A stretch of 32,000 bases of DNA, taken from positions 1 to 32,000 of the forward strand of contig WBXG01000007.1 in NCBI GenBank assembly GCA_008932965.1. Reading direction: 5' to 3'. The position numbers were made by a program, and so were the translations under genes. The notes beneath the pieces are model-generated. The model was given only the letters and a program-made list of their open reading frames with translations, was not told the origin of the DNA and did not search any database. The stretch comes from Verrucomicrobiota bacterium (GTDB lineage Bacteria; Verrucomicrobiota; Verrucomicrobiia; Chthoniobacterales; UBA6821). This document shows positions 2 to 32,000 of this stretch, piece after piece; positions within the stretch are counted from its first letter, which is position 1, and the number at the start of each line of letters is the position of its first letter.

Positions 2-340
2 AGAATGAAATACCGGAAGGCCCACAAGGGCCGGGTCAAAGGCAAAGCCAAGGCCGGCACTGAGCTGACCAAAGGCGAATTTGGCCTGATGGCTATGGAA
101 AGCGGAAAGATAACGGCGCGCCAGATCGAAGCGGCCCGTATCGCGATGACCCGCCACTGTAAAAGGGGCGGTTTTGTCTGGATTAAGATCTTCCCAGCCA
201 AGCCAATTACCAAGAAACCTGCCGAAACCCGTATGGGTAGCGGAAAAGGTGGTGTTGAGTACTACGTTGCGGTTGTAAAACCGGGCAGAATCCTTTATGA
301 GATGCAGGGCGTGGAGAAAGCTGTTGCTGAAGAGGCTCTG
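2..340 (+). CDS. rplP: 50S ribosomal protein L16 (uL16), internal fragment. The N-terminus runs off the window edge, the C-terminal ~25 residues are absent, and it reads in frame into the next feature.
   Basis: The translation [82 protein letters not shown] matches the conserved uL16 core. Codons are GC3-rich (GCC, GGC, CTG, AAG), unlike the rest of the window. Confidence 0.7.
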
Positions 341-745
341 ACGCTTGCTCAAGAAAATGCACAACGCCATCACATCACAAACATCACCTGGCATCAGGGA
401 AATCTTTTGGAACCACTTTCAAAACAAGGAAGCCCACCCACTTTTGATCTCATTGTTGCTAATTTGCCCTACATTCCAAAAGAAGAAATTCTAACCTTGT
501 CTCGTGAAATAGCACATGACCCTATGATGGCTTTAGATGGGGGTGGCGATGGACTAGATCTTATTATGCGTTTGATTAAAGAGGCGCCTGCTTATCTAAA
601 ACCAGAGGGGTATCTTCTGCTAGAAATTGGAAAAAATCAAGAATGTGAGGTGATGCAACGATTGCAAGAATCCGGTTATCAAAGCATTCATGCCATTGCA
701 GATTATCAGGGAGTATTAAGATTCATTGAAGCAGTGCAACCATGA
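341..745 (+). CDS. prmC: Release-factor glutamine methyltransferase PrmC/HemK, C-terminal ~135 aa only. The SAM-binding N-terminal half is missing.
   Basis: [28 protein letters not shown]...[13 protein letters not shown]...L..E....DP..AL.GG.DGLD....[16 protein letters not shown] matches the HemK motif IV region and C-terminus. AT-rich codon usage resumes here. Confidence 0.65.
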
Positions 746-907: not shown

Positions 908-2179
908 ATGGATAAAATGATTGTACATGGTGGTCGCACTCTCCAAGGGGAAGTTTTTATTAGCGGCTCAAAAAACTCTGCACTGCCGATTTTAGCGGCA
1001 ACACTCCTCACACGGGATCACTGTATCATTGAGAATGTTCCTGACCTAAGTGACATTCATTACATGCTTACAATTTTAAGCATGCTTGGATGTGAGGTGG
1101 AGAGAGCAAGTGGAGTTGTTCAAGTAAAGGCCTCCCATATAAAAACAGAAGCTCCCTATGAGATCGTACGAAAAATGCGTGCGTCTGTCTGTATTCTTGG
1201 GCCTCTCTTAGGACGGGAGCATGCTGCTACGGTCTCACTTCCAGGAGGGTGTGTTATTGGAGACCGTCCTATCGATTTGCATCTTCGTGGGTTTGAAGAA
1301 CTCGGGGCGACTGTTCAAGTCAAAGGCGGGGACATTCATGTTCTTGCATCCCATCTTCAAGGTGCCACCATTAATCTTCGTGGAAAATATGGACCAACTG
1401 TTTTAGGAACTGGAAATATTATGATGGCAGCAGTCCTTGCTGATGGAATGACTGTTATTGAAGGAGCTGCTGAGGAGCCCGAGGTGATCGACCTTGCTGA
1501 AGTATTAATGAAAATGGGTGCAAAAATTCATGGAGTTGGTACTTCACGAATCGTGATTGAAGGAGTGAAAGAATTACATGGATTTACACACACCGTCATT
1601 CCCGACCGTATCGAAGCAGGAACATTTCTCATTGCGGGAGCTATTGCTGGAAAAAAATTGACGGTGCGTCATATCATTCCAAAACATTTGGATGCCCTGC
1701 TACGTGCACTTCAGGAAGCAGGATTTGATCTTACTTCGAAAAAAGAGAGTATTACGATCACTTCTAATGGTCCTAAAAAACCGTTACACATCGAGACACT
1801 TCCGTTTCCTGGGTTTGCTACTGATCTCCAAGCACAGCTCTGCGCCATGCTCTCTACCATTGAGGGAGTGAGTACCATGACAGAACATATTTTTCCTCAG
1901 CGCTTCATGCATCTTGCAGAATTAAAACGGATGGGCGCTAATATTGAACTTAATGGTGCTACTGCCACGATTATTGGGGTTCATCAACTGAGTGGAGCCC
2001 CTGTTATGGCTAGTGACTTGCGTGCTTCTGCTGCGCTTGTGCTAGCAGCACTTGCTGCCGATGGTCCCACTGAAATTAGCCGAGTTTACCACATCGATCG
2101 TGGCTATGAAGGAATAGACAAAAAACTCAATAAGCTGGGTGCTCGTATTGAAAGGGTTAGCCCGGATATTTCATTTTGA
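908..2179 (+). CDS. murA: UDP-N-acetylglucosamine 1-carboxyvinyltransferase
   Basis: Full-length match to the MurA pattern: MDK..V.GG..LQGEV.ISGSKNSALPILAA.LL, KMRAS..ILGPLL, and the active-site LPGGCVIGDRPIDLH with Cys retained. The last 7 codons and the stop lie in a repeat-element end. Confidence 0.95.
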   Translation: MDKMIVHGGRTLQGEVFISGSKNSALPILAATLLTRDHCIIENVPDLSDIHYMLTILSMLGCEVERASGVVQVKASHIKTEAPYEIVRKMRASVCILGPLLGREHAATVSLPGGCVIGDRPIDLHLRGFEELGATVQVKGGDIHVLASHLQGATINLRGKYGPTVLGTGNIMMAAVLADGMTVIEGAAEEPEVIDLAEVLMKMGAKIHGVGTSRIVIEGVKELHGFTHTVIPDRIEAGTFLIAGAIAGKKLTVRHIIPKHLDALLRALQEAGFDLTSKKESITITSNGPKKPLHIETLPFPGFATDLQAQLCAMLSTIEGVSTMTEHIFPQRFMHLAELKRMGANIELNGATATIIGVHQLSGAPVMASDLRASAALVLAALAADGPTEISRVYHIDRGYEGIDKKLNKLGARIERVSPDISF

Positions 2180-2182
2180 TCC
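2157..2182 (+). repeat. Solo terminus of the TIR element family (TTAGCCCGGATATTTCATTTTGATCC)
   Basis: About 22/26 identity to the family end consensus YTAR-CCCGGATATTTCATNCNGATC. It overlaps the murA 3' end. Confidence 0.6.
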
Positions 2183-2207: not shown

Positions 2208-3257
2208 CTATTCTAACTCAAAATTGATATTGACCGTATAAGCACTATTAGAACCAATTCCACGAGGCAATGGGGCAATTTTTAGGACCTTTTGAGCAGC
2301 TGACAAAACCGAGGCATCCATCACAGGATTTCCGCTTGGCTTAGAAAGGGCAAAATGAGAAATGGTCCCATCTGATTGAATTGTTAATTGCAGAGTGCAA
2401 ACAAAATCATGCTTATGTTCTGTTGGAATTGCAGTCGGTTGTTCCCATTGACTATAAAATCGATCATGAATGAGTTCATGATAGGCACCTAGTGCTCCAT
2501 TATCGACACCAGTCCCATTTCCCTCTCCATGCGTTCCGGAGGCTCCAGCCCCTCCATTTTTACTTTCAAGAAAAGCTGATTTTGTTGATGAGTCAGCATG
2601 ATTGCTGCTATTGATATTTTTACTATGACCCTCTTTTTTTTCATGAGAGGTCGATTCCTTGGATTTAGGAGAGGATGTGGAGTGAGATATTTTTTCCTTA
2701 GCCTCACTTTGAGAAGTAGCTTTTAAAGCTGGCTTGGGAGTCAGTTTTGGAATTGGCTTTGGAGTTGGCTTGGGAGTCAGTTTTGGAATTGGCTTTGGAG
2801 TTGGCTTGGGAGTCAGTTTTGGAATTGGCTTGGGAGTTGGCTTCGGAGTTGGCTTCGGAGTTGGCTTCGTAGTTACATCAGCCAGTGGTATCTCAGATTT
2901 ATTTTCTAATGGAGGAGGTGTACCCTCTTCCACAGGATCTTCTTTAGGATCTTCTGTAGGAGTGACTGGTGCATCTAATTTGGAATCAGGAGAAGAAGGT
3001 GTGGCAACAGGGGCTTCCTGTTCTTCCTCCTTAGTAGTAGGTACAGATTGCTCTTTTTCAGCAGTAGCCGGAGCAGGTGCTGGAATTCCTAATGTGGGAG
3101 ATGCTGAGCCAAAAGATCCTGTATCAAGCCATGTTACCTGTTCGAGAGGTGGTTTCACAGGTTGCCTCATAAAATAGATGATACTTAAAATAAGTACTCC
3201 ATGAATAGAGGCGACAATAATAAGTGCTCTTCGGAAATCCGGCCGAATATTTTTCAT
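2208..3257 (-). CDS. TonB/TolA-family energy-transducer protein
   Basis: It has an N-terminal TM helix ([19 protein letters not shown]), a long Pro/Lys/Thr-rich spacer with TPKP repeats, and a C-terminal TonB_C-like domain ([16 protein letters not shown]...[32 protein letters not shown]). The start overlaps the upstream exbD-like stop (ATGA). Confidence 0.8.
2731..2874. repeat. Tandem repeat inside the TonB-like CDS: three 36-bp units followed by three 12-bp units
   Basis: The unit ggcttgggagtcagttttggaattggctttggagtt occurs at 2731, 2767 and 2803. It is followed by ggcttcggagtt x2 and ggcttcgtagtt. On the minus strand this encodes [12 protein letters not shown] reiterations. Confidence 0.9.
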
Positions 3258-7159: not shown

Positions 7160-9340
7160 CTATGCATAATGCGAGCTAGAATTTTTTTTCTTGAAATAAA
7201 AATCATGTATCCAACAAATGATTCGCTGGATAAGGAATATCCCAGCACGTTCCAATTCAGATTTTTGCTGCCACTGATAAGCTCGCACTGGAATTGTTTC
7301 TTCTATGAGTTTTTTCCAAAATTTTAGAGTTGCTTCTTGAGTAAAAGCTTGTCCCGATCGGTGGCCATTTTGAACAAGCATAGCACGCAAACTTGGGTTT
7401 TCTTGAAGTTGTTTGAGTTGTTTAAAAACTTCTTTAAGTGATGTAGCCACGAGATAATCTATCTCAGGATTCCCATCAGCAGCATAAGCAGAATCGGATC
7501 CTCCAATAAAGGGAACTCCTGCTAACCAAGCATTATAGAGCTTTGTAGCAGGCTTATTCATATGCAAAGAGCGAGAGAAGCTGCGAATAGCAATCACACA
7601 GTCAACATCAGTATAATTATTCCACTCATGATATCCTCGTATTTGAAAATGAAGTCCAAGCTCTTCATATAGCCTGCGATGCCATTTTTGAGAACGAAGC
7701 TCCGGGGCAAGGTTTTGTATTTCCCCAAAGAAGCAGACATTTTCAAAGCGTGTTCCTCGAGTTGGATCACGTGGTTTTAGAAAAGGTTGAGGCCAGTGAG
7801 GAACATAAATGGAATTTGGAAGATAACGGGTATAATTTCTATTTTCCACTAAATGCAAATCCACACTAGGATGCGGTGTTTTATCAGCAAGAATATCGAC
7901 TAGAAATAAATGTGGATTTATAGATTTTCGTCTGAGTAACGGGTTTAAAAGCTTGCTCATCGTAATACAAATTCCAGTATTTTTTTCAAAAGGAAACTCG
8001 GTGGAAAGAGTAGAGTTGACTCCAATTTTCTTAAGCAAACTCCATGTTTGATAAATCCAACATGTAATTGTAGGGCTTTTGATTGGTTGATTTAATGCCA
8101 TTGGGTCTCCTTCTTTCCATTTTTCTCCCCAATCATCAGCAGAAAGAAAATATTCCATGATATGAAATGAAATCTTATCAAGAAACTTGATGGGAATCTG
8201 TTTCTCCATTTTTTTCTGGAAATAGTTGGTATAATACCGAAGAAAAAAAGTAGATAAGGAAGGGACCTTTGCATGAATGCTTGCACACGTTGCAAATAAG
8301 ATGGAGGCACGTTTTAAAGCGTTCGCTGATGCTTTCCAGTACCAAGAAAGGAGTGGATGTTCCGGCTTTTTTTCTTGAGCCTCTAAAGAATAAAAAGTGG
8401 CATCTATACTATTTTCGAGGGAAAATGCTGCCTTTCTCCAATATTCTGCTAACCGCTTATCTATTGTTAAAGCCTCACTTGCAGATGTGCGGTAGAAAAT
8501 AATTTTTTTATACACCTTTACCTGAGGAGGTAACTGATTATCTTCAAATTCTAATTTCTCTGCTTTGCAGGTCAGTTTCTTCCAGAGGTCATCGACAGCA
8601 TTCAAAGCTGCTAAAGCAGCTAGTGAATACTCAATAGCCTGATCTTCGTTGCCGATTTGAGTGGCCATTGCGGCTTCGATCCGTAACGCTAGAGCATTCT
8701 GATTTAATTCGAGAAGCTCATTCCAGAGGTGTTTATAGGGTGCTATTTTCTCTGGTGAAATGGATGCAGTATGAATATGGATATTGGCAAGATGAGCTGC
8801 CGCATATGCTGCTTTTACCCAACGATGGGTTAACACTATATTCAAAAAAGCATCATGGTTGTTAAGCGCTTGTGCTTTTTTAAATAAGGAAACTGCCTTG
8901 ATAGCATAACGAGAGGCTTCAGGAAGAGTCGACTCATAGTGGATTGCTGCCTGCGATACTTCTTGTATTTCTTGATCAAAATCTTTTGAGGCTTGTGCCT
9001 GCGCAAAAGCTAACCAATAACGGTACGCCGAGCCTGCTTCCCTATTTTCATTCCTATGGAAGGCCCAATAGGAGATTTCTGATTTTTGAAGCTTGTGATC
9101 CAAATAGTAATTGCCTTCTTGGTTCCAATAGGTCAAAAACGCAATCGCATCAATACTATGGGTTCGTTGAGGTTTGAGTAGCGCAGTTGCAGTTCTTTGT
9201 TGATCTACGAATGCGGCCTCATCGCTTGCAAGCCTCCAATATGCAGCAAGTCTCTCGTTTCCGAAAGCAGAAGCCCTGAGAGCTTGCTCACGATAGAGAG
9301 CAATTTCATCTCTTGCTTCTCTCTGAATTGAAAAATCCAT
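7160..9340 (-). CDS. Hypothetical two-domain protein: N-terminal alpha-helical repeat region (~390 aa) plus a C-terminal GT-B-like putative glycosyltransferase domain
   Basis: The N-terminal part carries recurring xYW(R/K)xA helical motifs (AAYWRLAS, YRYWLAFA, AEYWRKAA, SWYWKASA). The C-terminal ~340 aa is clearly paralogous to the next gene (CWIYQTW, FLVDI.AD..PHP...LHLV.NR, PHW.QP.L.PRDP.RG, NLAPELRS, KPATKLYNAWLAGVPFIGG.DSAYAADG). Confidence 0.6.
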   Translation of the reverse strand: MDFSIQREARDEIALYREQALRASAFGNERLAAYWRLASDEAAFVDQQRTATALLKPQRTHSIDAIAFLTYWNQEGNYYLDHKLQKSEISYWAFHRNENREAGSAYRYWLAFAQAQASKDFDQEIQEVSQAAIHYESTLPEASRYAIKAVSLFKKAQALNNHDAFLNIVLTHRWVKAAYAAAHLANIHIHTASISPEKIAPYKHLWNELLELNQNALALRIEAAMATQIGNEDQAIEYSLAALAALNAVDDLWKKLTCKAEKLEFEDNQLPPQVKVYKKIIFYRTSASEALTIDKRLAEYWRKAAFSLENSIDATFYSLEAQEKKPEHPLLSWYWKASANALKRASILFATCASIHAKVPSLSTFFLRYYTNYFQKKMEKQIPIKFLDKISFHIMEYFLSADDWGEKWKEGDPMALNQPIKSPTITCWIYQTWSLLKKIGVNSTLSTEFPFEKNTGICITMSKLLNPLLRRKSINPHLFLVDILADKTPHPSVDLHLVENRNYTRYLPNSIYVPHWPQPFLKPRDPTRGTRFENVCFFGEIQNLAPELRSQKWHRRLYEELGLHFQIRGYHEWNNYTDVDCVIAIRSFSRSLHMNKPATKLYNAWLAGVPFIGGSDSAYAADGNPEIDYLVATSLKEVFKQLKQLQENPSLRAMLVQNGHRSGQAFTQEATLKFWKKLIEETIPVRAYQWQQKSELERAGIFLIQRIICWIHDFYFKKKNSSSHYA

Positions 9341-10376: not shown

Positions 10377-10397
10377 AAAAAAAGTGAGTGTGATGGG

Positions 10398-10450
10398 CTA
10401 GCCCGCATATTTCATACCGATCGTAAGGAATAGCAGGTGCAAGTTGAACT
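10398..10450. repeat. Solo or truncated terminus of the TIR element family
   Basis: CTAGCCCGCATATTTCATACCGATCGT matches the family terminus. The rest has diverged. It lies 22 nt upstream of the start codon at 10376. Confidence 0.55.
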
Positions 10451-11056: not shown

Positions 11057-12144
11057 AATTTCTTTTCTTCTCGGGGCATGCGCATCTAGCACTTGACCCA
11101 AATGCAGGTGAAGCCTCTGGAGGTGCAGAGTTGCAAGTAGCTTTGCTTTCAAAAGAACTTGTACAACGAGGTCATGACACAACCATCATCGCTACAGATA
11201 CAGGTCAGGAAGATGCTGTTTTTTGGGAAGGGATTAAAGTGTGCGTCGCACGTAGATTTGATAGCAGCTCCTTTTGGAAAAGCGCGTTAGCAATCCCATC
11301 GGTTTTGCGCATTATTGTTGAAGAAAAACCTGATGTGGTTGTGGTTTATGGGTGGACAGCATGGCTCTATCTCTTGGCTCAGTGGAGTAAAGTATGTCGT
11401 TATCGGCTTGTTTATGTCTGTGCTCTCGATTCAGAAATTGAAGGTACATTCTCCTACACTCATCGTTTTTGGGGATGGCTTTTTAAACGAGGAATGAGAC
11501 TCTGCCATGTACGTTTTGGAATCACAGAGCATCAAAAACAGCTCTTCCATCAACAAGGGATGAGCTGTTTTTTAACACGCCTGCTTTTACAACAAGCTCC
11601 AGCAGTCACCTCTTCTATCATCGAAAAACCGATCGATCTTCTTTGGGTAGCCCGTTGTAATCAAGTAAAGCAGCCACTTCAATTTTTAGAACTTGCCAAA
11701 AGATTTCCTCACGTACGCTGTCAGATGATTTGTTCGAATCAAGATCAAGAACTTTGGAAGGAAGTGAAGGACCAAGTTCAACATTTAGATAACATCGAGT
11801 TTCTCGAAGTTGTTCCCTACCGTGATATTCAACTCTATTTTAATCGAGCTAAGATTTTTGTGAATACCTCACTTGAAGAAGGGGTCCCTAACACCTTTAT
11901 TCATGCAGCGCTAGGACATACGGCTATTGCTTCACTACGTGTGGACCCTGATCAGATGTTTGATCACTTTGAAGCAGGTTTTTGTGCACAAGATAATAGG
12001 GGATATTTTTTTGAAAGGATTCAAAAGTTACTTCATCAGCCAGATCTTTTATCTCACGCACAATCGGAAGCGGCTCGTTTTGTGAGCACTTGGCACAATA
12101 ATAAAAAAAATATGGATAGCTTTCTTCAAGGAGTAGAGCAATGA
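11053..12144 (+). CDS. Glycosyltransferase family 4-like
   Basis: GGAELQVALLSKELVQRGHD N-terminal GT4 signature and C-terminal VNTSLEEGVPNTFIHAALG (an EX7E-like region). It is translationally coupled to its neighbours (ATGA overlaps). Confidence 0.75.
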   Translation: MKFLFFSGHAHLALDPNAGEASGGAELQVALLSKELVQRGHDTTIIATDTGQEDAVFWEGIKVCVARRFDSSSFWKSALAIPSVLRIIVEEKPDVVVVYGWTAWLYLLAQWSKVCRYRLVYVCALDSEIEGTFSYTHRFWGWLFKRGMRLCHVRFGITEHQKQLFHQQGMSCFLTRLLLQQAPAVTSSIIEKPIDLLWVARCNQVKQPLQFLELAKRFPHVRCQMICSNQDQELWKEVKDQVQHLDNIEFLEVVPYRDIQLYFNRAKIFVNTSLEEGVPNTFIHAALGHTAIASLRVDPDQMFDHFEAGFCAQDNRGYFFERIQKLLHQPDLLSHAQSEAARFVSTWHNNKKNMDSFLQGVEQ

Positions 12145-13280
12145 AGCGAGTATTGCATGTCATCGATCATCTTCAATTGGGTGGAGCTCAATCTTTATTG
12201 TTAGATTTAGTAACCTTAATGGAAAAATCAGAATGGCACTGTGAAGTTGCTTCCATGCATGGACGTGGTCTTTTTGCAGAACTCTTAGAAAAAAAAGGAA
12301 TCTCAGTCCATTCCCTCTCTCCCTCCTTATGGCCACCGTGTTATCTTGCTGCATTTGCAAGCCTCCAATCTCAATTTGATATTCTTCATTTTCATCTTTC
12401 GGGTTCCAATTGGATTGCCAAACCCATGGCAGCTCTCCTTGGAAATCAACCCCGGATATCACATGATCATGGGAGTGATGATTTTCGTTTTCGTGGTAGG
12501 GGATTTGTTTTAATGGATGCCATCATGCATCGCTTTTCAACACACACGATTGCCGTCACACCGGAGGTAAAACAATTTTTAACCCATTATGAAGCTCTTA
12601 CTGCGGAGTCAGTCACAGCGATCTCAAACGGAATCAACGTGGAAGAATTCCGTCCTTTTACTTCAGAAGAAAAAAAAGAAGCCCGTCTGTTTTTTGATTT
12701 GCCCTCGGAAGCATTTGTGGTGGGCACGGTAGGCCGTCTTGCGCCTGAAAAAAACCAAACACTTTTCTTGAAAGCCGCTAAAATTGCTCTCGAGCAAGGA
12801 TTGAAAGCTACTTTTCTAATTGCAGGGACAGGCCCCGAAGAAGCAGCTTTAAAAAAATGTGCTGCACAACTTGGCATCGAACATAGTGTTCGCTTTTTAG
12901 GACAGATTAAAGATCGCGTCCAGCTCTACCGTTCATTAGATCTATTTGTACTAACCTCACGCTTTGAAGGTTTGCCAATGGTACTTTTAGAGGCCATGGC
13001 TTCAGGAATACCAGTTGTAAGCACCGATCTTGAGGGAATTCATCATGCACTTGAGGGAGGACGACATGGTCTCTTGATTCCCTCGGAGGATGAGATAGCT
13101 TTAAGTGACTGCTTGCTGCACTCCCATGAACGAATCCAACAAGAATCTTTGCGAAGTGCACGTCTTAAAGTAGAATCAGATTTTAGCGCTCAGAAAGCTG
13201 CTAAGAAGTTAGGGGATTTATATCAGTCACTTCTGAGCCCGAATATTTCACACCGATTACCTATGGAAGCCGGAAAGTAA
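12141..13280 (+). CDS. Glycosyltransferase family 4 (GT1/GT4 RfaB-like)
   Basis: LQLGGAQSLLLDLV, VGRLAPEKNQ and SRFEGLPMVLLEAMASGIPVVSTD motifs. The last 15 codons and the stop (from 13234) are encoded by a repeat element. Confidence 0.9.
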   Translation: MKRVLHVIDHLQLGGAQSLLLDLVTLMEKSEWHCEVASMHGRGLFAELLEKKGISVHSLSPSLWPPCYLAAFASLQSQFDILHFHLSGSNWIAKPMAALLGNQPRISHDHGSDDFRFRGRGFVLMDAIMHRFSTHTIAVTPEVKQFLTHYEALTAESVTAISNGINVEEFRPFTSEEKKEARLFFDLPSEAFVVGTVGRLAPEKNQTLFLKAAKIALEQGLKATFLIAGTGPEEAALKKCAAQLGIEHSVRFLGQIKDRVQLYRSLDLFVLTSRFEGLPMVLLEAMASGIPVVSTDLEGIHHALEGGRHGLLIPSEDEIALSDCLLHSHERIQQESLRSARLKVESDFSAQKAAKKLGDLYQSLLSPNISHRLPMEAGK

Positions 13281-13511
13281 GTGTGGACGCTTTATTGAGC
13301 TCGAAGTCTTCCTTGGGCGGTAGGTATTCATACAGCCCTGCATCAAAATGCTTGCCTGCGTTGACTCACTCGCTCCCACTCGTTTCCCCCTTTTAGGGCT
13401 TCCTAAGAGGCTCCTAAGAGACAGTCTCCCCCGCGGTCTCCAGACCACCGGTGGTGCCCTATCAGTCTTCGCGACCTCCTCTTTACGATCAGTATGAAAT
13501 ATGCGGGCTGG
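13234..13511 (+). mobile_element. TIR element, long form (278 bp), with a nested ~96-nt hairpin module at 13361..13456
   Basis: The left end is TGAGCCCGAATATTTCACACCGATTACC and the right end is CGATCAGTATGAAATATGCGGGCTGG. The core TACAGCCCTGCATCAAAATGCTTGCCTGC is followed by a TTGACTCACTCGCTCCC... module. Confidence 0.85.
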
Positions 13512-13616
13512 GAGAATTTAATCTTCATTTTCTTTTTTTTACTGTTTCTTTTTTAGTAAAAGGACCCATGCTCAAGTTTGTTTGTTTTGGTCTTTTAATG
13601 TTTAATTTTTTGAAAA

Positions 13617-16219: not shown

Positions 16220-16250
16220 TATCTACTTGAAACCCTAGCAGAACTGCATG

Positions 16251-16345
16251 TTAACCCGAATATTTCATACTGATCGTGACGAGGAGGTCGCGAAGCCAGA
16301 TGTGTGATACTGTAGACTCTTATTTTGAGTTGGGCCGTCTTATCA
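16251..16345 (-). repeat. Truncated TIR element: one arm plus a diverged core, reverse orientation, other end missing
   Basis: TTAACCCGAATATTTCATACTGATCGTGACGAGGAGGTCGCGAAGCC is the reverse complement of the right-arm consensus. TATTTTGAGTTGGGCCGT matches the reversed CATCAAAATG core. Confidence 0.75.
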
Positions 16346-17611: not shown

Positions 17612-17623
17612 TTTTAGCTCGGA

Positions 17624-17660
17624 TATTTCATCCTGATCTATTATGAAGCCTTCTCGTTTC
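17624..17660 (+). repeat. Solo left terminus of the TIR element family
   Basis: TTAGCTCGGATATTTCATCCTGATCTATTATGAAGCC aligns to the left arm of the copy at 28118 (TTAACCCGAATATTTCATCCTGATCTACTACGGAAGAC). Confidence 0.65.
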
Positions 17661-18483: not shown

Positions 18484-19716
18484 GTGTTTTCTCTTAATTC
18501 CAATTACCTTAAACTTAAAGCCGGTTATCTTTTTCCCGAAATAGCACGACGCGTTAAGGAGTTCCTTGAGGCTCATCCTGAGGCTGCGACTGATTTGATT
18601 CGTTGTGGTATTGGAGATGTTACAGAGCCTCTTCCTCGTGCTGTATGTGATGCGATGCATTCAGCTGTCGATGAAATGGGAATACGAGAAACGTTTCGTG
18701 GATATGGACCGGAGCAAGGATACGATTTCTTGAGGAAGCTTATTGCAAAGCATGATTATCAATTTCGAGGGGTAACAGTAGCTGAGGACGAAATTTTTAT
18801 CTCTGATGGCTCCAAATGTGATGGAGCGAACATCCTGGATATTTTAGGCAAGAATAATCGTATTGCTGTGATGGATCCTGTTTATCCCGTCTATGTCGAT
18901 ACAAACGTCATGGCGGGACGTACTGGTAATATGCAGGATGATGGCTCTTACGAAGGGATCACTTACCTTGAATGTAATCATGAAAATGGTTTTGTTCCTT
19001 CATTACCTCAAGAAAAAGTTGATATCATTTATCTCTGCTATCCAAATAATCCGACTGGTGCGGTCGCCTCTCGTGAAGCACTTACTCGTTGGGTGGAGTA
19101 TGCACGGAGTCACCATTCGTTAATTCTTTTTGATGCAGCTTATGAGGCATTTATTCAGGACCCCGATATACCTCACTCCATTTATGAAATTCCTGGAGCC
19201 AGGGAATGTGCTCTTGAGTTGCGAAGCTTTTCCAAAAAAGGAGGGTTTACGGGTGTGCGTTGTGCTTTTACTGTTGTCCCTAAGGAGCTCCTGGCTAGGA
19301 CTGCCCAAGGAGGACAAGCCTCTTTACATCCATTGTGGAATCGTCGCATGACAACCGCTTTTAATGGGGTTAGTTATATTACACAACGTGGAGCAGCGGC
19401 ACTTTATTCAGAAGAGGGTCAGGCTCAGGTGCAGTCTCTTATTACTCATTATATGGGAAATGCTGCTCTCTTACGTGAGGCAGTAATAGCAGCAGGGCTT
19501 ACTGTTTATGGAGGAACAAATGCTCCTTATCTTTGGGTTCAATCTCCTCTAGGAGAAAAAAGTTGGGAAACTTTTGATCGAATGCTTCATGACCATCATA
19601 TTGTGGTCACTCCTGGAAGCGGCTTTGGAAGCGCCGGTGAAGGCTATTTCCGTATTTCCGCATTCAATAGTCGGGATAATGTGCTTGAGGTAGCAAAGCG
19701 ACTTTCTCTTCGTTAA
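18484..19716 (+). CDS. dapL: LL-diaminopimelate aminotransferase
   Basis: DapL-type blocks [109 protein letters not shown] start. The stop TAA lies inside the TTAA of a repeat terminus. Confidence 0.9.
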
Positions 19717-19772
19717 ACTGGATTTTCATACCAGTGACCTAAGGAGACCGGAAAGCCAGCGTGGATACTGTT
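19713..19772 (+). repeat. Solo, degenerate left arm of the TIR element family
   Basis: TTAAACTGGATTTTCATACCAGTGACCTAAGGAGACCGGAAAGCCAGCGTGGATACTG aligns with TTAACCCGGATATTTCATTCCGATCACCTGCGGAAGCCGGGAAGCTAGGGTTGATGCTG (copy at 25500). Confidence 0.6.
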
Positions 19773-22650: not shown

Positions 22651-22689
22651 TGCGCTATCAAGGTGATCAGTAGGAAAGATCCGGTTTAA
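22651..22689 (+). repeat. Solo degenerate right terminus of the TIR element family
   Basis: GGTGATCAGTAGGAAAGATCCGGTTTAA versus the right end TGGTGATCAGAATGAAATATGCGGGTTAA of the copy at 23911..23975. About 22/25 matches over the terminal 25 nt. Confidence 0.55.
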
Positions 22690-23910: not shown

Positions 23911-23975
23911 TTAACCCGGATATTTTATACTGATCGCGGCCTTCGCTGGTGATCAGAATGAAATATGCGGGTTAA
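23911..23975 (+). mobile_element. Miniature (65 bp) deletion derivative of the TIR element, essentially the two arms only
   Basis: TTAACCCGGATATTTTATACTGATCGCGG-CCTTCGC-TGGTGATCAGAATGAAATATGCGGGTTAA. TTAA is present at both ends and the sequence folds as a near-perfect hairpin. Confidence 0.85.
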
Positions 23976-24005
23976 CCACATTATCCTACAGAATTTTTCA
24001 CACTT

Positions 24006-24503
24006 ATGATGATCCGTCGTAACACACTTCTTCTTTTGCTAGTTCTCTTTCTTTTTGGAAATTCCGGATGTTCCAATCTCACCCCCACAGAAAATGGATT
24101 GCTCGCTGCAGGAGCTGTAGGAGCCGCTACTGGAGTGGCTTTAGGGACCACGGTGAGCCCCTCTATTTCTATACCTGTAGCTATTGGCTCGGCTCTCCTT
24201 GCTGGAGGAGGTGCTTATCTTTATTCCAAAAATCGAGCAACCATTGACCAACGCCGGATTGCGGAAGCACGCGCTCGTCTTTACTACGCTAAGCTCAATG
24301 AGTCAGAACAAGAGAATACTAATCGATATTTAGCAGTGAATGCCCCGAACACTGCTCAAACACAAGGACAAGCTGTCATGCTTTATGATACTCAAACTAA
24401 GACGATGCCTAACGATGTTTATGATATGAAAAAAACACCCTCTGTTGGAGCCTCTACATCGATTGGAAATAACAGAGCCACCTACATTGGCTCTGGGAAC
24501 TAG
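24006..24503 (+). CDS. Lipoprotein with a glycine-zipper region
   Basis: Signal peptide plus lipobox LFLFGNSG|C, then a Gly/Ala-rich AAGAVGAATGVALG...AIGSALLAGGGAYLY segment. Confidence 0.7.
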   Translation: MMIRRNTLLLLLVLFLFGNSGCSNLTPTENGLLAAGAVGAATGVALGTTVSPSISIPVAIGSALLAGGGAYLYSKNRATIDQRRIAEARARLYYAKLNESEQENTNRYLAVNAPNTAQTQGQAVMLYDTQTKTMPNDVYDMKKTPSVGASTSIGNNRATYIGSGN

Positions 24504-24545
24504 AGAGACCTCAATGTTGAACGTAGTAATGATGAGCTCTCCACA

Positions 24546-24587
24546 AGCCGTAGTAGTAGTAGATTTAGTATGAAATATTTGGGCTAG
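24546..24587 (-). repeat. Solo left-arm terminus (reverse orientation), abutting the next copy and sharing its CTAG
   Basis: AGCCGTAGTAGTAGTAGATTTAGTATGAAATATTTGGGCTAG duplicates the end of the adjacent copy (CTTCCGTAGTAGATTGGTATGAAATATTTGGGCTAG at 24732..24767). Confidence 0.7.
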
Positions 24588-24767
24588 CCCAAATATTTCA
24601 TACTGATCGTGACGAGGAAGCTGCGAAGGGTGATGGGGCAAGGCAGTCGAGCATTTTGATGCTGGGCTGTATGAACACATACCGCCCAAGTCAAAATGGG
24701 AGTCTAACGCAGCATCCATCTGACTTCCCAGCTTCCGTAGTAGATTGGTATGAAATATTTGGGCTAG
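24584..24767 (-). mobile_element. TIR element, standard form (184 bp), reverse orientation, CTAG at both ends
   Basis: Its reverse complement aligns end to end with the copies at 28118 and 25500, including the core TACAGCCCAGCATCAAAATGCTCGACTGCC. Confidence 0.9.
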
Positions 24768-24771
24768 GATC

Positions 24772-25260
24772 TCACTGGCTTTCGGCTTCAATCAACGATT
24801 GTTGTATTAAAGAAAAAATTTCTATTTGAAGAAGTGCTTTTTCCTGAGCTGAGCTAAATGAGGCATGGTCGCATAGGTGGTGACCTACTTCAGTAATTTG
24901 GTGTTCAGCAGCTAGCGATAAGCGCACAATACTCATCATGCGCAACCAGGCATCTCGGTGAGCTAAGGGAATCTGAAAAGAACGAAGCTGCTTAGAAGGA
25001 TTTTCATATTCCAGTGCAGCTAAATCAGTGAGAACTTTCTCATGACATGAGGAAAAGAGCGCTTGAAGTTCGGGGACAATATATTCTTTCCAATCTTGAG
25101 AAAAGAGGGGGTCTTGTTTGGTCAGTTTTTGAAAAAGATATTCATTCACGATCTGTGAACTCAGTTCTTTTTGCTGTAATGGTTGGGTTAAAAGTGTCAC
25201 AAGAGAAAAATCGATTTCTTGAAAAAGAAGGTCACCATTAGGTTGAAGAGAACAATTCAT
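24772..25260 (-). CDS. Hypothetical protein (162 aa)
   Basis: Clean ORF with AT-rich codon usage like the neighbouring genes. I recognise no motif. It lies downstream of ybeY-clpS on the same strand. Confidence 0.5.
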   Translation of the reverse strand: MNCSLQPNGDLLFQEIDFSLVTLLTQPLQQKELSSQIVNEYLFQKLTKQDPLFSQDWKEYIVPELQALFSSCHEKVLTDLAALEYENPSKQLRSFQIPLAHRDAWLRMMSIVRLSLAAEHQITEVGHHLCDHASFSSAQEKALLQIEIFSLIQQSLIEAESQ

Positions 25261-25486: not shown

Positions 25487-25499
25487 TTACAGCTTCTTG

Positions 25500-25705
25500 T
25501 TAACCCGGATATTTCATTCCGATCACCTGCGGAAGCCGGGAAGCTAGGGTTGATGCTGCGTTGGTCTCGAATTGTGATTCGGGAGGTAGGGACTCTACAG
25601 CCCTGCATCAAAATGCTCGCCTGCGTTGACTCGCTCGCTCCCACGCGGTCTCCCATCAGCCTTCGCAGCCTCCTCATCACGATCAGTATGAAATATCCAG
25701 GTTAA
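25500..25705 (+). mobile_element. TIR element (206 bp), reference copy, carrying a 27-nt remnant of the nested module (25626..25652)
   Basis: TTAACCCGGATATTTCATTCCGATC...GATCAGTATGAAATATCCAGGTTAA. Internal hairpin CTCGAAT-tgtg-ATTCGGG (25566..25583). Core CTACAGCCCTGCATCAAAATGCTCGCCTGC. Confidence 0.9.
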
Positions 25706-25992
25706 AAAATTTGCTCCAATGCTGCTGTAAGCAAATATCCCTGGAGTTTTTCTACGTAGAGTTCTCCTTCTTCACGAGAGCCGGACCAAAGAGTAGAGCG
25801 TCCTTGTACGTGTACTTCGCGCATTTTTTTTTCTGCAATTTCTTTGCTAAATCCAAAGATCTTTTGAAATACCATAGTCACATAACTCATTAGATTAATA
25901 GGATCATCATGGACAACGACCTGCCAGACTGGCTCCAGTTCTAGTTCCATGACTGTTTCAGGATTTTCTAAAATGAGTGGTTCCGTTGTCAT
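25702..25992 (-). CDS. clpS: ATP-dependent Clp protease adaptor ClpS
   Basis: VWQVVVHDDPINLMSYVTMVFQKIFGFS.E.A...M.EVH..G......GSREE.E.YV..L. The stop TAA lies inside the element's terminal TTAA (25702..25705). The start overlaps the ybeY stop. Confidence 0.92.
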   Translation of the reverse strand: MTTEPLILENPETVMELELEPVWQVVVHDDPINLMSYVTMVFQKIFGFSKEIAEKKMREVHVQGRSTLWSGSREEGELYVEKLQGYLLTAALEQIF

Positions 25993-27244: not shown

Positions 27245-27319
27245 AGTTATCCCCATCCGTATTGAAAAGTAAAACTAGTTTGGCTGCCTTGCATAGATTT
27301 GAACTATGACAAGCAGATT
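27245..27319. repeat. Direct repeat copy 1 (75 bp): 36 nt of tRNA-Gln trailer plus tRNA-Gln nt 37-76
   Basis: 74/75 identical to 27419..27493, with the single mismatch at 27279/27453. It contains the T-arm, the 3' acceptor strand and CCA of tRNA-Gln but no 5' half. Confidence 0.95.
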
Positions 27320-27418: not shown

Positions 27419-27493
27419 AGTTATCCCCATCCGTATTGAAAAGTAAAACTAGCTTGGCTGCCTTGCATAGATTTGAACTATGACAAGCAGATT
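27419..27493. repeat. Direct repeat copy 2 (75 bp), part of the intact tRNA-Gln locus
   Basis: See copy 1. The repeat boundary at 27493/27494 falls between the anticodon's third base and nucleotide 37. Confidence 0.95.
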
Positions 27494-27528
27494 CAGAGTC
27501 TGCTGTGCTACCGTTACACCACAAGGCA
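27455..27528 (-). tRNA. tRNA-Gln (anticodon CTG), 74 nt with encoded CCA
   Basis: Hand-folded cloverleaf: acceptor TGCCTTG/CAAGGCA (U1:A72, as in bacterial tRNA-Gln), D arm GTGT-AACGGTA-GCAC, anticodon arm GCAGA-CTCTGAA-TCTGC, 4-nt variable loop, T arm CATAG-TTCAAAT-CTATG, discriminator G, CCA. Confidence 0.88.
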
Positions 27529-28063: not shown

Positions 28064-28117
28064 GAATTAAATTTAATAAAAGAGGGGGTTATGAAAATTT
28101 CTTATTATAAAATGGCT

Positions 28118-28302
28118 TTAACCCGAATATTTCATCCTGATCTACTACGGAAGACGGGAAGCAAGGGTGGATGCTGCGTTAGGCTCCCATTTTGACTTGG
28201 ACAGTACCTACTCATACAGTCCTGCATCAAAATACGTGTCTGCCTTGCCCCATCAGCCTTCGCAGCTTCCTCGTCACGACTAGTATGAAATATTCGGTTT
28301 AA
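28118..28302 (+). mobile_element. TIR element, standard form (185 bp), TTAA at both ends
   Basis: TTAACCCGAATATTTCATCCTGATC...GACTAGTATGAAATATTCGGTTTAA. Core TACAGTCCTGCATCAAAATACGTGTCTGCC. No nested module. Confidence 0.9.
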
Positions 28303-28411
28303 GAAATATCGTGGCGATTCAAGTTTCGAATCAGGCAATAACACTAAGCTAGTTTTCACATTGGTCAAGTAGTGTCTGATCTCAATGAAAGCAGATGGAT
28401 CTATTTATGGG

Positions 28412-28765
28412 TTAACCCGCCTACTTCATACCGATTCTGCTGCAGCTTGCGAACACCTGATAGATACTGCGTCAGTCTCGAATTGCTCCTCGGGCAGTAT
28501 GACTACCGGCAGCGGGGAAGCTGCGGGAGAGATTGTCGCAAAGCGACAACCCGAAGGGCGAGACGAGCGAGAGCGAGCGAGTCAAACTACAGCCGTCGTC
28601 GCAATCCATCACCTTCGTTGACTCGCTCGCTCCCGTTCGTCTCGCCCTTTCAGGGCTGCCCCCTAAAGCCAGGGCAGTCTCCACCACGGTCTCCCGACCG
28701 CAGGTGGTTTCTGTATCAGGATTCGAGGCGCCTTGCGACGAACCAGTATGAAATATGCGGGTTAA
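28412..28765 (+). mobile_element. TIR element, composite form (354 bp), with two nested hairpin modules in inverted orientation (28505..28585 reverse, 28618..28707 forward)
   Basis: TTAACCCGCCTACTTCATACCGATTC...AACCAGTATGAAATATGCGGGTTAA. The left arm is nearly identical to the copy at 31368. Internal 30-nt inverted repeat GGGCGAGACGAGCGAGAGCGAGCGAGTCAA / TTGACTCGCTCGCTCCCGTTCGTCTCGCCC with a 32-nt spacer. Confidence 0.9.
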
Positions 28766-28824
28766 TTGAGGATGGACTATCAAGGAGAGCGCAGAAGTGG
28801 TAGCAATGATAACAATTATAGAAG

Positions 28825-29943
28825 TTACAAATAGAGTGCATTAACTAAACGCTGTGTTCGTGGCCCTGAAAGAACACCATGATGCATCACATTGGGTACA
28901 TAGGCGAAACCCCATTCACGTTCTGGATCAGCAAAGGCAAGAGTTCCTCCTGCTCCTGGATGGCCAAAAGCTCGAGGATTTTTTCCCATGATCTTGGAGT
29001 TATTATTTACCATTAATCCTGCTGAGAAAAAAGTTTCCTGCTGGAGTACCCGATCTATTCCAGATGCCATTGGTGTTTCCATGAGGTCGCGTGTTTTTTT
29101 ATTAAAAAAAGGACGATCCTCATCCATGGCCACAAGTGAGTAAAATTTGGCAAGTGCAGCAGCATTACTAATAGCACCTGAAGAAACAATAGAGGCTCGA
29201 CGTAGCTCTGGACGATTCATGGATGCCATTGGAAAACTTCCTCCGGGTTCTATGAATGCTCGTCGTGTCAGGGTAGTAGGATCAATGTAAGCAGCGCTAA
29301 AATCACTTGGTGGAGCTGCGGTTTTAGGTGGTATAATAGTTGCTGCTCGATCGAGATGTGCCTCCGGAAGACCAAACCAAAGATCAATTTCAAAAGGGTC
29401 TGCAAAATGTGTGCGCCAGTAGGAGGAGAGGGGGACTCCATCGCAAAGACGCCTTAAGAGTTCATCTACAAGAGAGCCGAAAGTACGAGCCCCATAACCA
29501 TGGCTCCCATCGTAGGGCCAGTTAGATGGCTGCTTAGCAAGAGCCTCAACAATTCCTGCATGATCAGTAAGCAAAAGCCCTTTTTGGTCGAGTGCAGCAA
29601 GACCAGCGCGATGCGAGAGGAGTTGAGCAATAGTAATATTTTCTTTACCGGCTTGTGCAAATTCTGGCCAGAATGTAGCCACTTTTTCCTCTAAAGAAAT
29701 GTTTTTTTCTTCAAGAGCATGAAGAAGAGTAGTAGCTGCAATTCCTTTTCCTGCTGACCAAATCAGCGAGAGTGTTCTCTCCGTCCAGGGTTTCGTTTGT
29801 GATGTATCACACCATCCCCCATACAAAGAGATGATTTTTTCTCCGCGGTGATAGAGAGCCAGAGAGGCCCCCATTTCAAGATCTTCGTCAAAATTATGTT
29901 GAAATGCACAGGAAAGTTGATCTGAAATTTTAGAATAGTTCAT
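28825..29943 (-). CDS. Beta-lactamase-fold serine hydrolase (class C / esterase-like)
   Basis: SxxK at LIWSAGKGIAATTLL and a C-terminal HPGAGGTLAFADPE (H/KxG-type motif). I chose the ATG at 29943 (MNYSKI...) over the upstream GTG at 29985. Confidence 0.75.
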   Translation of the reverse strand: MNYSKISDQLSCAFQHNFDEDLEMGASLALYHRGEKIISLYGGWCDTSQTKPWTERTLSLIWSAGKGIAATTLLHALEEKNISLEEKVATFWPEFAQAGKENITIAQLLSHRAGLAALDQKGLLLTDHAGIVEALAKQPSNWPYDGSHGYGARTFGSLVDELLRRLCDGVPLSSYWRTHFADPFEIDLWFGLPEAHLDRAATIIPPKTAAPPSDFSAAYIDPTTLTRRAFIEPGGSFPMASMNRPELRRASIVSSGAISNAAALAKFYSLVAMDEDRPFFNKKTRDLMETPMASGIDRVLQQETFFSAGLMVNNNSKIMGKNPRAFGHPGAGGTLAFADPEREWGFAYVPNVMHHGVLSGPRTQRLVNALYL

Positions 29944-29989
29944 GGTGGATAAGCTCGAAATCTTCCTCAAGTAGTGGGTGCTCACACAG

Positions 29990-30154
29990 CCACCATCGCC
30001 TTCTTTGACTCGCGCGATCCAGCTCGTTTCTTTTTTAAGGGCTTACTAACCTAACAACTGAGTTAGTAATCGCTCTGGTGGTCTTCCTGTCACGTCTGGT
30101 TTCTATACCAGGCCGCTTACCTTATAACATTTCAGTGTGAAATATCTGTGCTAG
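29990..30154 (+). repeat. Degenerate right portion of a composite TIR element (module plus right arm, no left arm)
   Basis: CCACCATCGCCTTCTTTGACTCGCGCG...TTTCTATACCAGG...CAGTGTGAAATATCTGTGCTAG parallels 28600..28765 of the composite copy. Contains the stem TTACTAAC/GTTAGTAA (30043..30069). Confidence 0.7.
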
Positions 30155-31215
30155 GCTATGGTTACCTCTTTGCAGAGATAGACATCTTGAATGGACTGAA
30201 TCAATTGAATTCCTTCAGCCATGGGGCGCTGAAAGGCTTTGCGTCCGCAGATAAGGCCTGTTCCTCCTGCACGTTTATTGATCACAGCTGTTTTAACAGC
30301 ATCAGCAAAATCGTGTTCGCCCGAAGCTCCTCCACTGTTGATAAGCCCAGCACGTCCCATGTAACAGTTGGCTACTTGATAGCGGCACAAGTCAATAGGA
30401 TGGTCTGAAGTAAGTTCAGTATATATGCGTTCATCGAGCTTTCCATAGCTGGAGTTACCTGTATTAAGAGCCTTGTAGCCGCCATTGTTCTCAGGAAGTT
30501 TTTGTTTGATGATATCTGCTTCGATGGTGACTCCGAGATGATTAGCTTGGCCAGTTAAGTCGGCCGAAACGTGATAATCCTTGTCTTTTTTGAATGCCGG
30601 ATTACGCAAGTAGCACCAGAGGACAGTAGCCATTCCAAGCTCATGAGCATGATGAAAGACCTCTGCAACCTCAACAATTTCTTTGTCGGCATCTTCAGAA
30701 CCAAAATAGATCGTGGCTCCGACTGCAGCTGCTCCCATGTCGTAGGCCTCTTCAACAGTACCAAACATAATTTCTTGATGTTTATTGGGGTAGGTGAGCA
30801 ATTCGTTGTGGTTAAGTTTTACGAGAAAAGGAATATGATGAGCATATTTACGAGCAACCATTCCAAGCACACCACAAGTAGAGGCAACGGCACTGCATCC
30901 TGCCTCAATAGCCAATCGTACAATGTTTTCAGGGTCAAAATAGATCGGATTTTTTGCAAAGCTAGCACCTGCAGAGTGCTCTACTCCTTGATCAACCGGG
31001 AGTATGGAAAGATAGCCTGTTCCACCAAGGCGGCCATGAGCATACATCCGCTGTAGATTGCCCAAAGTACGTAGATTACGATCAGAATGAGAAAAAATAC
31101 GGTCTACAAAATCAGGCCCGGGTAAATTCAAAAGCTCTTTTGCAATGGTCATCGACTTGTGCGTGAGAAGTGAGTCTGCTTCTGATCCGAGATATTGTTG
31201 AATAGTAGAAATCAT
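30151..31215 (-). CDS. fbaB: Class I fructose-bisphosphate aldolase (FbaB/DhnA type)
   Basis: ~354 aa. [19 protein letters not shown], the ADIIKQKLP Schiff-base lysine region and INSGGASG, typical of the E. coli FbaB family. The stop TAG lies within the CTAG terminus of the degenerate element (30151..30154). Confidence 0.88.
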
Positions 31216-31367
31216 AAAAAGAGTATTTAGAAGTTTGGTAATTTTTAGCTACTTGGTCCAATGAGTTTGGAATATCCTAGCGAAGTAAGTATTTAAATTA
31301 GTAGCATTAGCGGAAGTGTACAATTTCAAAATTGGAAAAAAGGAAATAAGGGTCAGGCTAACCCGCC

Positions 31368-31541
31368 CATTTCATACCGATTCTGCTGCGGCTTGCGAAC
31401 ACCTGATGGATACTGCGTCAGCTTCGAATTGCTCCTCGGGCAGTAGGGACTCATACAGCCCTACATCAAAATGCTCGCCTGCCTCACCCCATCAGCCCCC
31501 GCGGCCTCCTCGTCACGATCAGTATGAAATATCCGGGTTAA
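31368..31541 (+). mobile_element. TIR element, standard form (174 bp)
   Basis: CTAACCCGCCCATTTCATACCGATTC...GATCAGTATGAAATATCCGGGTTAA. Stem GTAGGG/CCCTAC around CTCATACAG. Core CATCAAAATGCTCGCCTGCC. Confidence 0.9.
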
Positions 31542-31550
31542 AAGTTCTGT

Positions 31551-32000
31551 TCACTTGCTTTTGTCAATATTCTTAACCTGACCCCTGTTTTTCTTGATCC
31601 AGGGAATGGTAGTTCGGAGGCGTTTTCCCACTCTTTCTATGGGATGCTTTTCTCCTTTTTTAAGAAGAGTATGATAATTTTTGCGTCCTTGCTGATCTTC
31701 ATTGATCCAATCTTGGGCAAACTTACCGGATTGAATATGATGAAGCACTTGTTTCATCCGTTTTTTTACTGAAGCATCGATAATTTTTGGTCCTACAGCG
31801 ACATCCCCATATTTTGCTGTTTCAGAAATGGAAGAACGCATCCCGCTAATCCCAGATTCATGAATGAGATCGACGGTCAGTTTTAATTCATGAAGCACTT
31901 CAAAATATGCTATTTCAGGTTGGTAGCCGTGTTCTATGAGTGTTTCAAATCCAGCATGGATAAGAGCACTAATACCACCACAGAGAATGGTTTGTTCACC
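31551..32000 (-). CDS. ilvC: Ketol-acid reductoisomerase, C-terminal part (5' end beyond the window)
   Basis: The frame is open to the window edge. [66 protein letters not shown] matches the KARI knotted domain. Confidence 0.9.

Follow-up and report, generated by a model that had tools for sequence, protein, structure and literature searches.

Short palindromic repeats in a freshwater Verrucomicrobiota genome are probably MITEs derived from IS1380-family insertion sequences

A freshwater Verrucomicrobiota genome was found to carry, within the 32-kb window analysed here (the window being the whole stretch of DNA under study), repeated copies of an element of about 180 bp with the ends CCCGNATATTTCATAC...GTATGAAATATNCGGG, which encodes nothing and is flanked by the 4-mers TTAA, CTAG, CTAA or TTAG. 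We consider these repeats to be copies and decayed relics of one MITE family, a non-autonomous derivative of the IS1380 family, with a probability of about 0.87, since about 30 full-length elements (1.7-2.2 kb) found in other genomes and metagenomes have the same termini (CCCGGATATTTCATA[C/G]), the same YTAR flanks and an IS1380-family DDE transposase. A sequence-only reading of the window had recognised a non-coding, MITE-like TIR family, and this agrees with the TIRs, the 4-bp YTAR direct flanks, the many copies, the absence of coding capacity and the presence or absence of copies at matching sites that are described below. The same reading had been unable to assign the repeats to any known IS family; that view no longer holds, as transposases of the IS1380 family are encoded by full-length elements whose 16-nt termini and YTAR duplications are the same, and such elements were found, as that reading had proposed to look for them, in other genomes and metagenomes.

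Allowing up to 3 mismatches, the 21-nt terminal repeat CCCGGATATTTCATACTGATC was matched 14 times in the 32-kb window, where 100 shuffles gave an expectation of 0.00, and the 29-nt core gave 4 matches (0 expected). Repeat finding, an alignment of 8 copies and an nhmmer profile built from family copies recovered all of the two-ended copies that had been listed earlier and most of the relics. The tally for the window was 7 two-ended copies and 8 relics (15; Table 1), whose spans add up to 1,977 bp (6.2% of the window), in line with the approximately 2 kb counted by hand before, and their GC content was 0.50, compared to 0.42 for the remainder. Two-ended matches to the profile were at 13232-13514, 24583-24768 (minus strand), 25498-25708, 28116-28304, 28410-28768 and 31357-31543, with relic matches at 10397-10430, 16250-16337, 23934-23977 and 29943-30155, while the relics at 2157-2182, 17614-17660, 19713-19772, 22651-22689 and 24546-24587 were found by eye or by short BLAST. 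Past 13 kb, a copy or relic was present in 12 of the approximately 17 intergenic gaps (counted from the ORF list), which bears out the earlier remark that most gaps from that point contain one. The start of the last copy, previously placed at 31368, was corrected to 31358 (CTAA at 31358-31361, with the terminal repeat running from 31362). Across all of the sequence searched (the window and sequence from other genomes), the profile gave 90 non-overlapping matches.

Table 1. Copies and relics of the element family in the 32-kb window
Feature	Position	Strand	Score or remark
One-end relic	2157-2182		
One-end relic (right arm, reversed), CTAG on outer side	10398-10450	-	
Long-form copy, 278 bp, degenerate flanks TGAG/CTGG	13234-13511	+	170.6 bits
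Right-arm relic, 95 bp, grpE-dnaJ spacer	16251-16345	-	45.4 bits
One-end relic, 3 nt past dnaJ stop codon	17614-17660		
Degenerate left-arm relic	19713-19772		TTAA = 19713-19716
Degenerate one-end relic; repeat at 22665-22685, then TTAA	22651-22689		
Mini copy, 65 bp: two terminal repeats, near-zero interior, TTAA/TTAA	23911-23975		
Right-end relic abutting the next copy; one CTAG common to both	24546-24587		
Two-ended copy, 184 bp, CTAG/CTAG	24584-24767	-	188.9 bits; DNA fold z = -8.0
Two-ended copy, 206 bp including TTAA/TTAA duplications	25500-25705	+	profile 183.7 bits
Two-ended copy, 185 bp, TTAA/TTAA	28118-28302	+	186.7 bits; RNA fold z = -4.3
Long-form copy, 354 bp, TTAA/TTAA	28412-28765	+	139.6 bits
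Decayed long-form relic, outer CTAG at 30151-30154	29943-30154	+	18.3 bits
Two-ended copy, 184 bp, CTAA/TTAA; mosaic of type-B left and type-A right arm	31358-31541	+	171.9 bits

The copy at 25500-25705 reads TTAA-CCCGGATATTTCATTCCGATC ... GATCAGTATGAAATATCCAGG-TTAA. The two long forms (278 and 354 bp) add a module, GACTCGCTCGCTC...GCCC-TTT-GGGC, which is present on one arm of the 278-bp copy (extra module at approximately 13360-13457) and on both arms of the 354-bp copy, as inverted copies at 28554-28585 and 28618-28649. The extra stretch of the 278-bp copy also includes a 12-bp variable tandem repeat (GCTTCCTTAGAG, window 13400-13425), which was present in 1-3 units among 99%-identical strains (counterparts at 9047-9339, 9071-9339 and 9059-9339 of strain contigs L001, L002 and L003). 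The module occurs a further time as GACTCGCTCGCTC...GCCCCTTTGGGG, the form also nested in the long copies, within the 99 nt that separate two 75-nt direct repeats of 99% identity (27245-27319 and 27419-27493). The second of these repeats includes the 3' 39 nt of a tRNA-Gln(CTG) gene (27455-27528, minus strand), and the pair resembles an att-type duplication of the kind that an integrating element leaves behind. The two left-arm subtypes, the extension of the arms to about 45 nt and the size range of 65-354 bp (by internal deletion or by the added module) that had been noted from the letters were all seen again in our alignments. Variable-length indels between copies leave no common reading frame, as had been proposed, and the ORFs lying mainly inside copies (28372-28803, 24330-24791 and 31316-31576) had no Pfam match.

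To characterise the termini, 65 MITE-size end pairs were collected from all of the sequence searched, with a modal length of 176-180 bp from tip to tip. A YTAR 4-mer adjoined the left end in 53 of the 65 pairs and the right end in 52 (background 1.2% per position), and the two flanks were identical in 31 of the 64 readable pairs (19 TTAA, 6 CTAG, 5 CTAA and one non-YTAR flank, TGGA/TGGA). As non-palindromic 4-mers, CTAA/CTAA and TTAG/TTAG, were found on both sides of elements, the duplication is of 4 bp and not of 2 bp. Neighbouring copies abut with a single YTAR common to both, as would result from insertion of a new copy into the flanking duplication of an older one. The terminal repeat is 21-25 nt long, its helix is paired in 85% of cells (32 copies), and the ends read CCCGG...CCGGG, which is in agreement with the 5'-CC...GG-3' termini described for IS1380 (PMC10045372). 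The variable base at position 5 of the terminus (columns 13 and 194 of alignment A2) co-varies between the two ends of a copy, with C-G in 7, G-C in 7, A-T in 6, a G-T wobble in 1 and non-complementary bases in 11; the same matched variants (G/C, C/G and A/T) were observed in full-length IS copies.

The interior of the element had been read as asymmetric; it is better described as a palindrome, imperfect and running the whole length, built of exchangeable modules. In 38 aligned copies from several MAG lineages, the left half resembled the reverse complement of the right half up to a central GTATG-loop-CATAC, and compensatory differences between subtypes keep the pairing. The central module exists in three self-complementary subtypes (CATTTTGA with TCAAAATG, GAATTGC with GCAATCC, and GAAGTCT with AGACTTC), and single copies folded into one long hairpin (RNA fold z of -2.8 and -4.3; DNA fold z of -8.0). 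When a 71-pair hairpin model was applied to 32 copies, 78.8% of cells held a standard pair, compared to 74.0% after shuffling (a value of 78.8% being reached in 0 of 500 shuffles) and 33-40% when the partners were slid by 1-3 columns, these pair counts being biased towards the full hairpin as the model was derived from single-sequence folds of the same copies. Double-sided pair changes numbered 37 under this model, compared to 26.2 ± 2.4 for shuffled alignments and 22-29 with the partners slid. The short hairpin that had been noted at a fixed place inside the element does show a standard pair in 71% of cells (32 copies), but is an alternative local fold of a stretch that also pairs within the long hairpin.

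The family was compared between genomes using contigs from NCBI, JGI and ENA metagenomes that matched the window at about 99% identity over 20 kb, with identical window proteins, and using two contigs of a lake MAG (Kiruna_bin-02438, 'uncultured Spartobacteria') that were syntenic with the window at 74-83% nucleotide identity. This places the host, uncultured and from freshwater, within the Verrucomicrobiota as a bacterium of Chthoniobacterales/Spartobacteria type. Mean identity between copies within a genome was 72-75%, with maxima of 84-95%; copies of the same subtype in different MAGs reached 95.5%, and no pair of copies in the window was more than 84% identical over its whole length. No gain or loss of a copy was found among the five 99%-identical strain contigs over 20 kb, which differed by the 12-bp VNTR and one synteny break only. 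Together with the identity of at most 84% between window copies, this gives no sign of recent activity; the copies are old. The window relic at 2157-2182 is orthologous to a full copy in the Kiruna MAG (L062 1467-1653) and the relic at 17614-17660 to a near-complete copy there (L031 5186-5355), so that these insertions, present as full copies in one species and as relics of 26-47 bp in the window, predate the species split and have since decayed by deletion. Presence and absence also differed between related MAGs, a comparison that had been suggested from the window alone: the relic in the grpE-dnaJ spacer (16251-16345) is absent from the orthologous spacer on L031, and the Kiruna and Tobar MAGs differed at 3 further sites, one of the filled sites having perfect TTAA/TTAA flanks. 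At the copy-free sites of related MAGs, which had diverged by 20-25%, no single intact YTAR could be read.

Several genes of the window take their stop codons or last codons from the element. The stop codon of clpS (assigned by Pfam; 25702-25704, minus strand) comes from the right TTAA of the copy at 25500-25705, that of a DeoC-family aldolase ORF (30151-31215, minus strand) from the outer CTAG of the relic at 29943-30154, and that of an aminotransferase ORF (18484-19716; stop at 19714) lies within the TTAA of the relic at 19713-19772, while a glycosyltransferase ORF (12141-13280) terminates within the copy at 13234-13511. For aroA (908-2179), the final 7 codons and the TGA are supplied by the terminal repeat of the relic at 2157-2182 (SPDISF*), and the Kiruna aroA gene (L062 1655-2908) has the same 3' end inside the orthologous copy (SPDISY*); an insertion of the element replaced the 3' end of aroA before the species split.

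All three of the synteny breaks observed coincided with copies of the element (at approximately 2.2 kb, 13.3-13.6 kb and 24.5 kb of the window). Between the window and strain contig L001 the break is at 24499, a point with copies on both sides (L001 20320-20610), and the copy at 24584-24767 is located where this synteny ends. In the Kiruna MAG (L031 628-1335) a single copy separates the adjoining TonB and STAS genes; the window has these two genes 11 kb apart, each bordered by a copy or relic. This points to recombination between copies as a source of genome rearrangement. Two other features of the region were observed. The TonB-like ORF (2208-3257, minus strand), which has a TonB C-terminal domain and adjoins exbD and exbB, contains 12-bp tandem repeats at 2686-2889 that encode a Pro/Lys-rich spacer. 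At the start of the window (5-745, plus strand), ribosomal protein L16 (PF00252, residues 2-117) runs on in one ORF, with no stop codon in between, into the C-terminal half of a methyltransferase that resembles HemK/PrmC and has an NLPY motif; this may represent a chimeric gene, the junction of a rearrangement or an artefact of assembly.

Besides being, or having been, mobile, the element might be retained by the host for its structure as an RNA or DNA hairpin, with roles such as stabilising the 3' ends of mRNAs, providing an RNase III site, blocking transcription between adjacent genes or, through its conserved core, yielding a small RNA; this we regard as quite unlikely. The excess of double-sided changes over shuffles would fit such a role, but palindromic master copies founding the subfamilies would give the same covariation signal without selection; RNAalifold, when run on the 32 copies, retained the terminal stem only, and mosaic copies that mix modules, such as that at 31358-31541, break the complementarity of the arms. 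The uniform size of 176-180 bp and an interior that is recognisable, beyond the ends, across several MAG lineages also favour a host role, against which stands the fate of orthologous copies, which are not preserved but are full in one species and reduced to stumps in the other. Many copies lie directly past stop codons, a position that a 3'-end function would predict but that follows from a TTAA or CTAG target. No match to the element passed the gathering score when Rfam was searched, as the sequence-only reading had proposed: at gathering and permissive thresholds only the tRNA-Gln passed, and the element matched only plant and animal miRNA-precursor models, far below threshold, as generic hairpins do. 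A promoter and terminator scan showed no enrichment tied to the elements.

To relate the MITE family to autonomous elements, one genome per species was scanned with the 16-mer GTATGAAATATNCGGG. Chance matches aside, hits fell mainly in Verrucomicrobiota MAGs, some also in Planctomycetota, and many formed opposite-strand pairs 160-190 bp apart. In a Pedosphaerales MAG, two ends 1.8 kb apart (L058 4914-6722) read CTAG|CCCGGATATTTCATAC...GTATGAAATATCCGGG|CTAG and enclose an ORF that matched PF13701 (E = 2.7e-97) and NF033539, 'IS1380 family transposase' (E = 1.6e-72; 244 bits with a cut-off of 180). A Pseudomonadales MAG contained a complete element of 1.57 kb with the same termini, CTAA/CTAA flanks and an IS1380-type transposase. 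Searching metagenome contigs with an IS1380-type transposase gave 80 loci, 26 of which had both ends, 1,735-2,173 bp apart, with the termini CCCGGATATTTCATA[C/G], and 19 of these 26 had identical 4-bp flanks (mostly CTAG, with some TTAG/TTAG or CTAA/CTAA). An element annotated as IS1380-family on the P. putida plasmid pKF715A was of similar layout (CTAG|CCCGCATTTCTCACAG...CTGTGAGAAATGCGGG|CTAG; 1,655 bp), and a search within 400 bp of the gene of an Acetobacter ascendens IS1380A-like element, at up to 4 mismatches, gave no inverted repeat of 16 nt that starts with CC. With full-length elements sharing both the ends and the duplications and encoding IS1380 transposases, the window elements are therefore read as non-autonomous IS1380-type derivatives.

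In one IS group, the similarity of the MITE arm to the left ends of the IS extended to about 48 nt (E = 3e-4 to 8e-4), and a direct parent was not found when the profile was compared with 83 IS sequences (82 loci and the joined Pseudomonadales element), the similarity being at most about 48 nt. The window itself lacks a transposase, as had been stated, by tblastn with an IS1380 transposase and by Pfam on its ORFs and called genes, and tblastn found no IS1380 transposase gene in approximately 300 kb from the MITE-rich Kiruna and Tobar MAGs. The MITE family was spread over several Verrucomicrobiota MAGs, with one diverged copy in a Phycisphaerales MAG, and a viral contig collection gave 0 matches to a terminal pattern of 22 positions (19 fixed, 2 two-fold degenerate and 1 N). 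A separate AT-rich element of 143 bp was observed in an Alcanivoracaceae MAG (L017 6873-7013), with termini as in the MITE (CCCGAATATTTCATAC...GTATGAAATATTCGGG) and an unrelated interior; it is a miniature derivative of this IS1380 subgroup that arose independently, in another phylum. This element and the diverged Phycisphaerales copy suggest that such derivatives arise repeatedly.

Other IS families with a TA-centred target were considered as the source of the MITE, namely IS5 (4-bp YTAR, in the IS5 group) and IS630/Tc1-mariner (TA within NTAN). YTAR flanks are typical of the IS5 group too, and CTAG is a preferred target of IS630 by the ISfinder descriptions, so that the family cannot be told from the flanks alone. 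However, an IS1380-type transposase is encoded by every full-length element found with these termini and an IS5 or IS630 one by none, and identical non-palindromic 4-mers stand on both sides not only of the MITE (CTAA/CTAA, five times) but also of IS copies (CTAA/CTAA or TTAG/TTAG at L135, L138 and the Pseudomonadales element), where IS630/Tc1-mariner elements would leave a 2-bp TA. An IS5 or IS630 origin, which we rate as highly improbable, was excluded on these two grounds, the transposase between the ends and the non-palindromic 4-bp duplications. The probability that the repeats, intergenic, palindromic and abundant as they are, represent a REP/BIME family spread by a RAYT (IS200/IS605-like) or a chance or low-complexity repeat is negligible, as the unit is about 180 bp rather than 20-40 bp, its defined termini match IS1380 and chance predicts 0 of the 14 terminal-repeat and 4 core matches, and a REP/RAYT origin was refuted by the target duplications and the matching full-length IS.

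If the elements are IS1380-derived MITEs, an IS1380-type transposase, encoded elsewhere in the genome or formerly present, would act on them in trans, binding the terminal 16-20 bp and inserting at YTAR sites such as TTAA or CTAG with a 4-bp stagger that gives the 4-bp duplication. Insertions at gene ends would be tolerated because TTAA and CTAG contain stop codons that the duplication restores; in a gene-dense genome, this would account for the accumulation of copies right behind stop codons or overlapping them. The copies would later decay by internal deletion and may serve as substrates for rearrangement. If co-transcribed with a neighbouring gene, a copy would give a long hairpin, with any effect on the host hypothetical.

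MITEs are commonplace and the IS1380 family is known, so no new kind of system is revealed here. For annotation, one repeat family accounts for about 6% of the region and for most intergenic spacers, breaks assemblies, marks three synteny breakpoints and supplies stop or C-terminal codons to several housekeeping genes. For the biology of mobile elements, an abundant MITE family is tied to IS1380, a family for which no MITE was described in the literature that we searched, although this is not proof of absence. Bacterial MITEs such as MITEPye1 of Paracoccus yeei, which is linked to IS1182, are small and non-coding, with TIRs, target duplications, a mostly intergenic location and a long stem-loop (PMC11578231). 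The window family is like these and like Correia/NEMIS and ERIC in such features, and was likewise assigned to an IS family through common ends; it differs from MITEPye1 in its parent family and in abundance, with 1-3 copies per chromosome for MITEPye1 compared to 6% of the DNA here.

Members of the IS1380 family (for example IS1380A of Acetobacter and the pKF715A element) have CC...GG termini and a 4-bp duplication, as do the window elements, and environmental IS1380 members have termini identical to those of the MITE. The window elements differ in being about 180 bp long, without a transposase gene and palindromic over their whole length, and the transposases of the elements with MITE termini share only 43-47% identity with the annotated IS1380 transposases from plasmids. 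IS1380 and piggyBac have 4-bp duplications and 5'-CC..GG-3' termini in common (PMC10045372), and their transposases are distant relatives (PMC5718144; PMC10045372). The layout TTAA|CCC...GGG|TTAA with a 4-bp duplication, known from piggyBac and from TTAA-specific MITEs, is also that of the window family, which differs from piggyBac in being bacterial, in a target relaxed to YTAR (TTAA, CTAG, CTAA and TTAG) and in the transposase of its relatives (PF13701/NF033539). Seamless excision is a hallmark of piggyBac. It is conceivable, although we think it unlikely, that this IS1380 subgroup and its MITEs are the closest bacterial working analogue of piggyBac, in which transposition might use seamless excision or a hairpin or cruciform form of the element and the hairpins, with their pairing kept by compensatory changes, might have been co-opted in these streamlined freshwater Verrucomicrobia to punctuate mRNA 3' ends where genes are tightly packed. 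Across MAGs of Verrucomicrobiota, Planctomycetota and Pseudomonadota and in environmental metagenomes, a set of IS1380 members has in common one 16-nt terminus, a target of the TTAA/CTAG type and a piggyBac-like layout of end and target.
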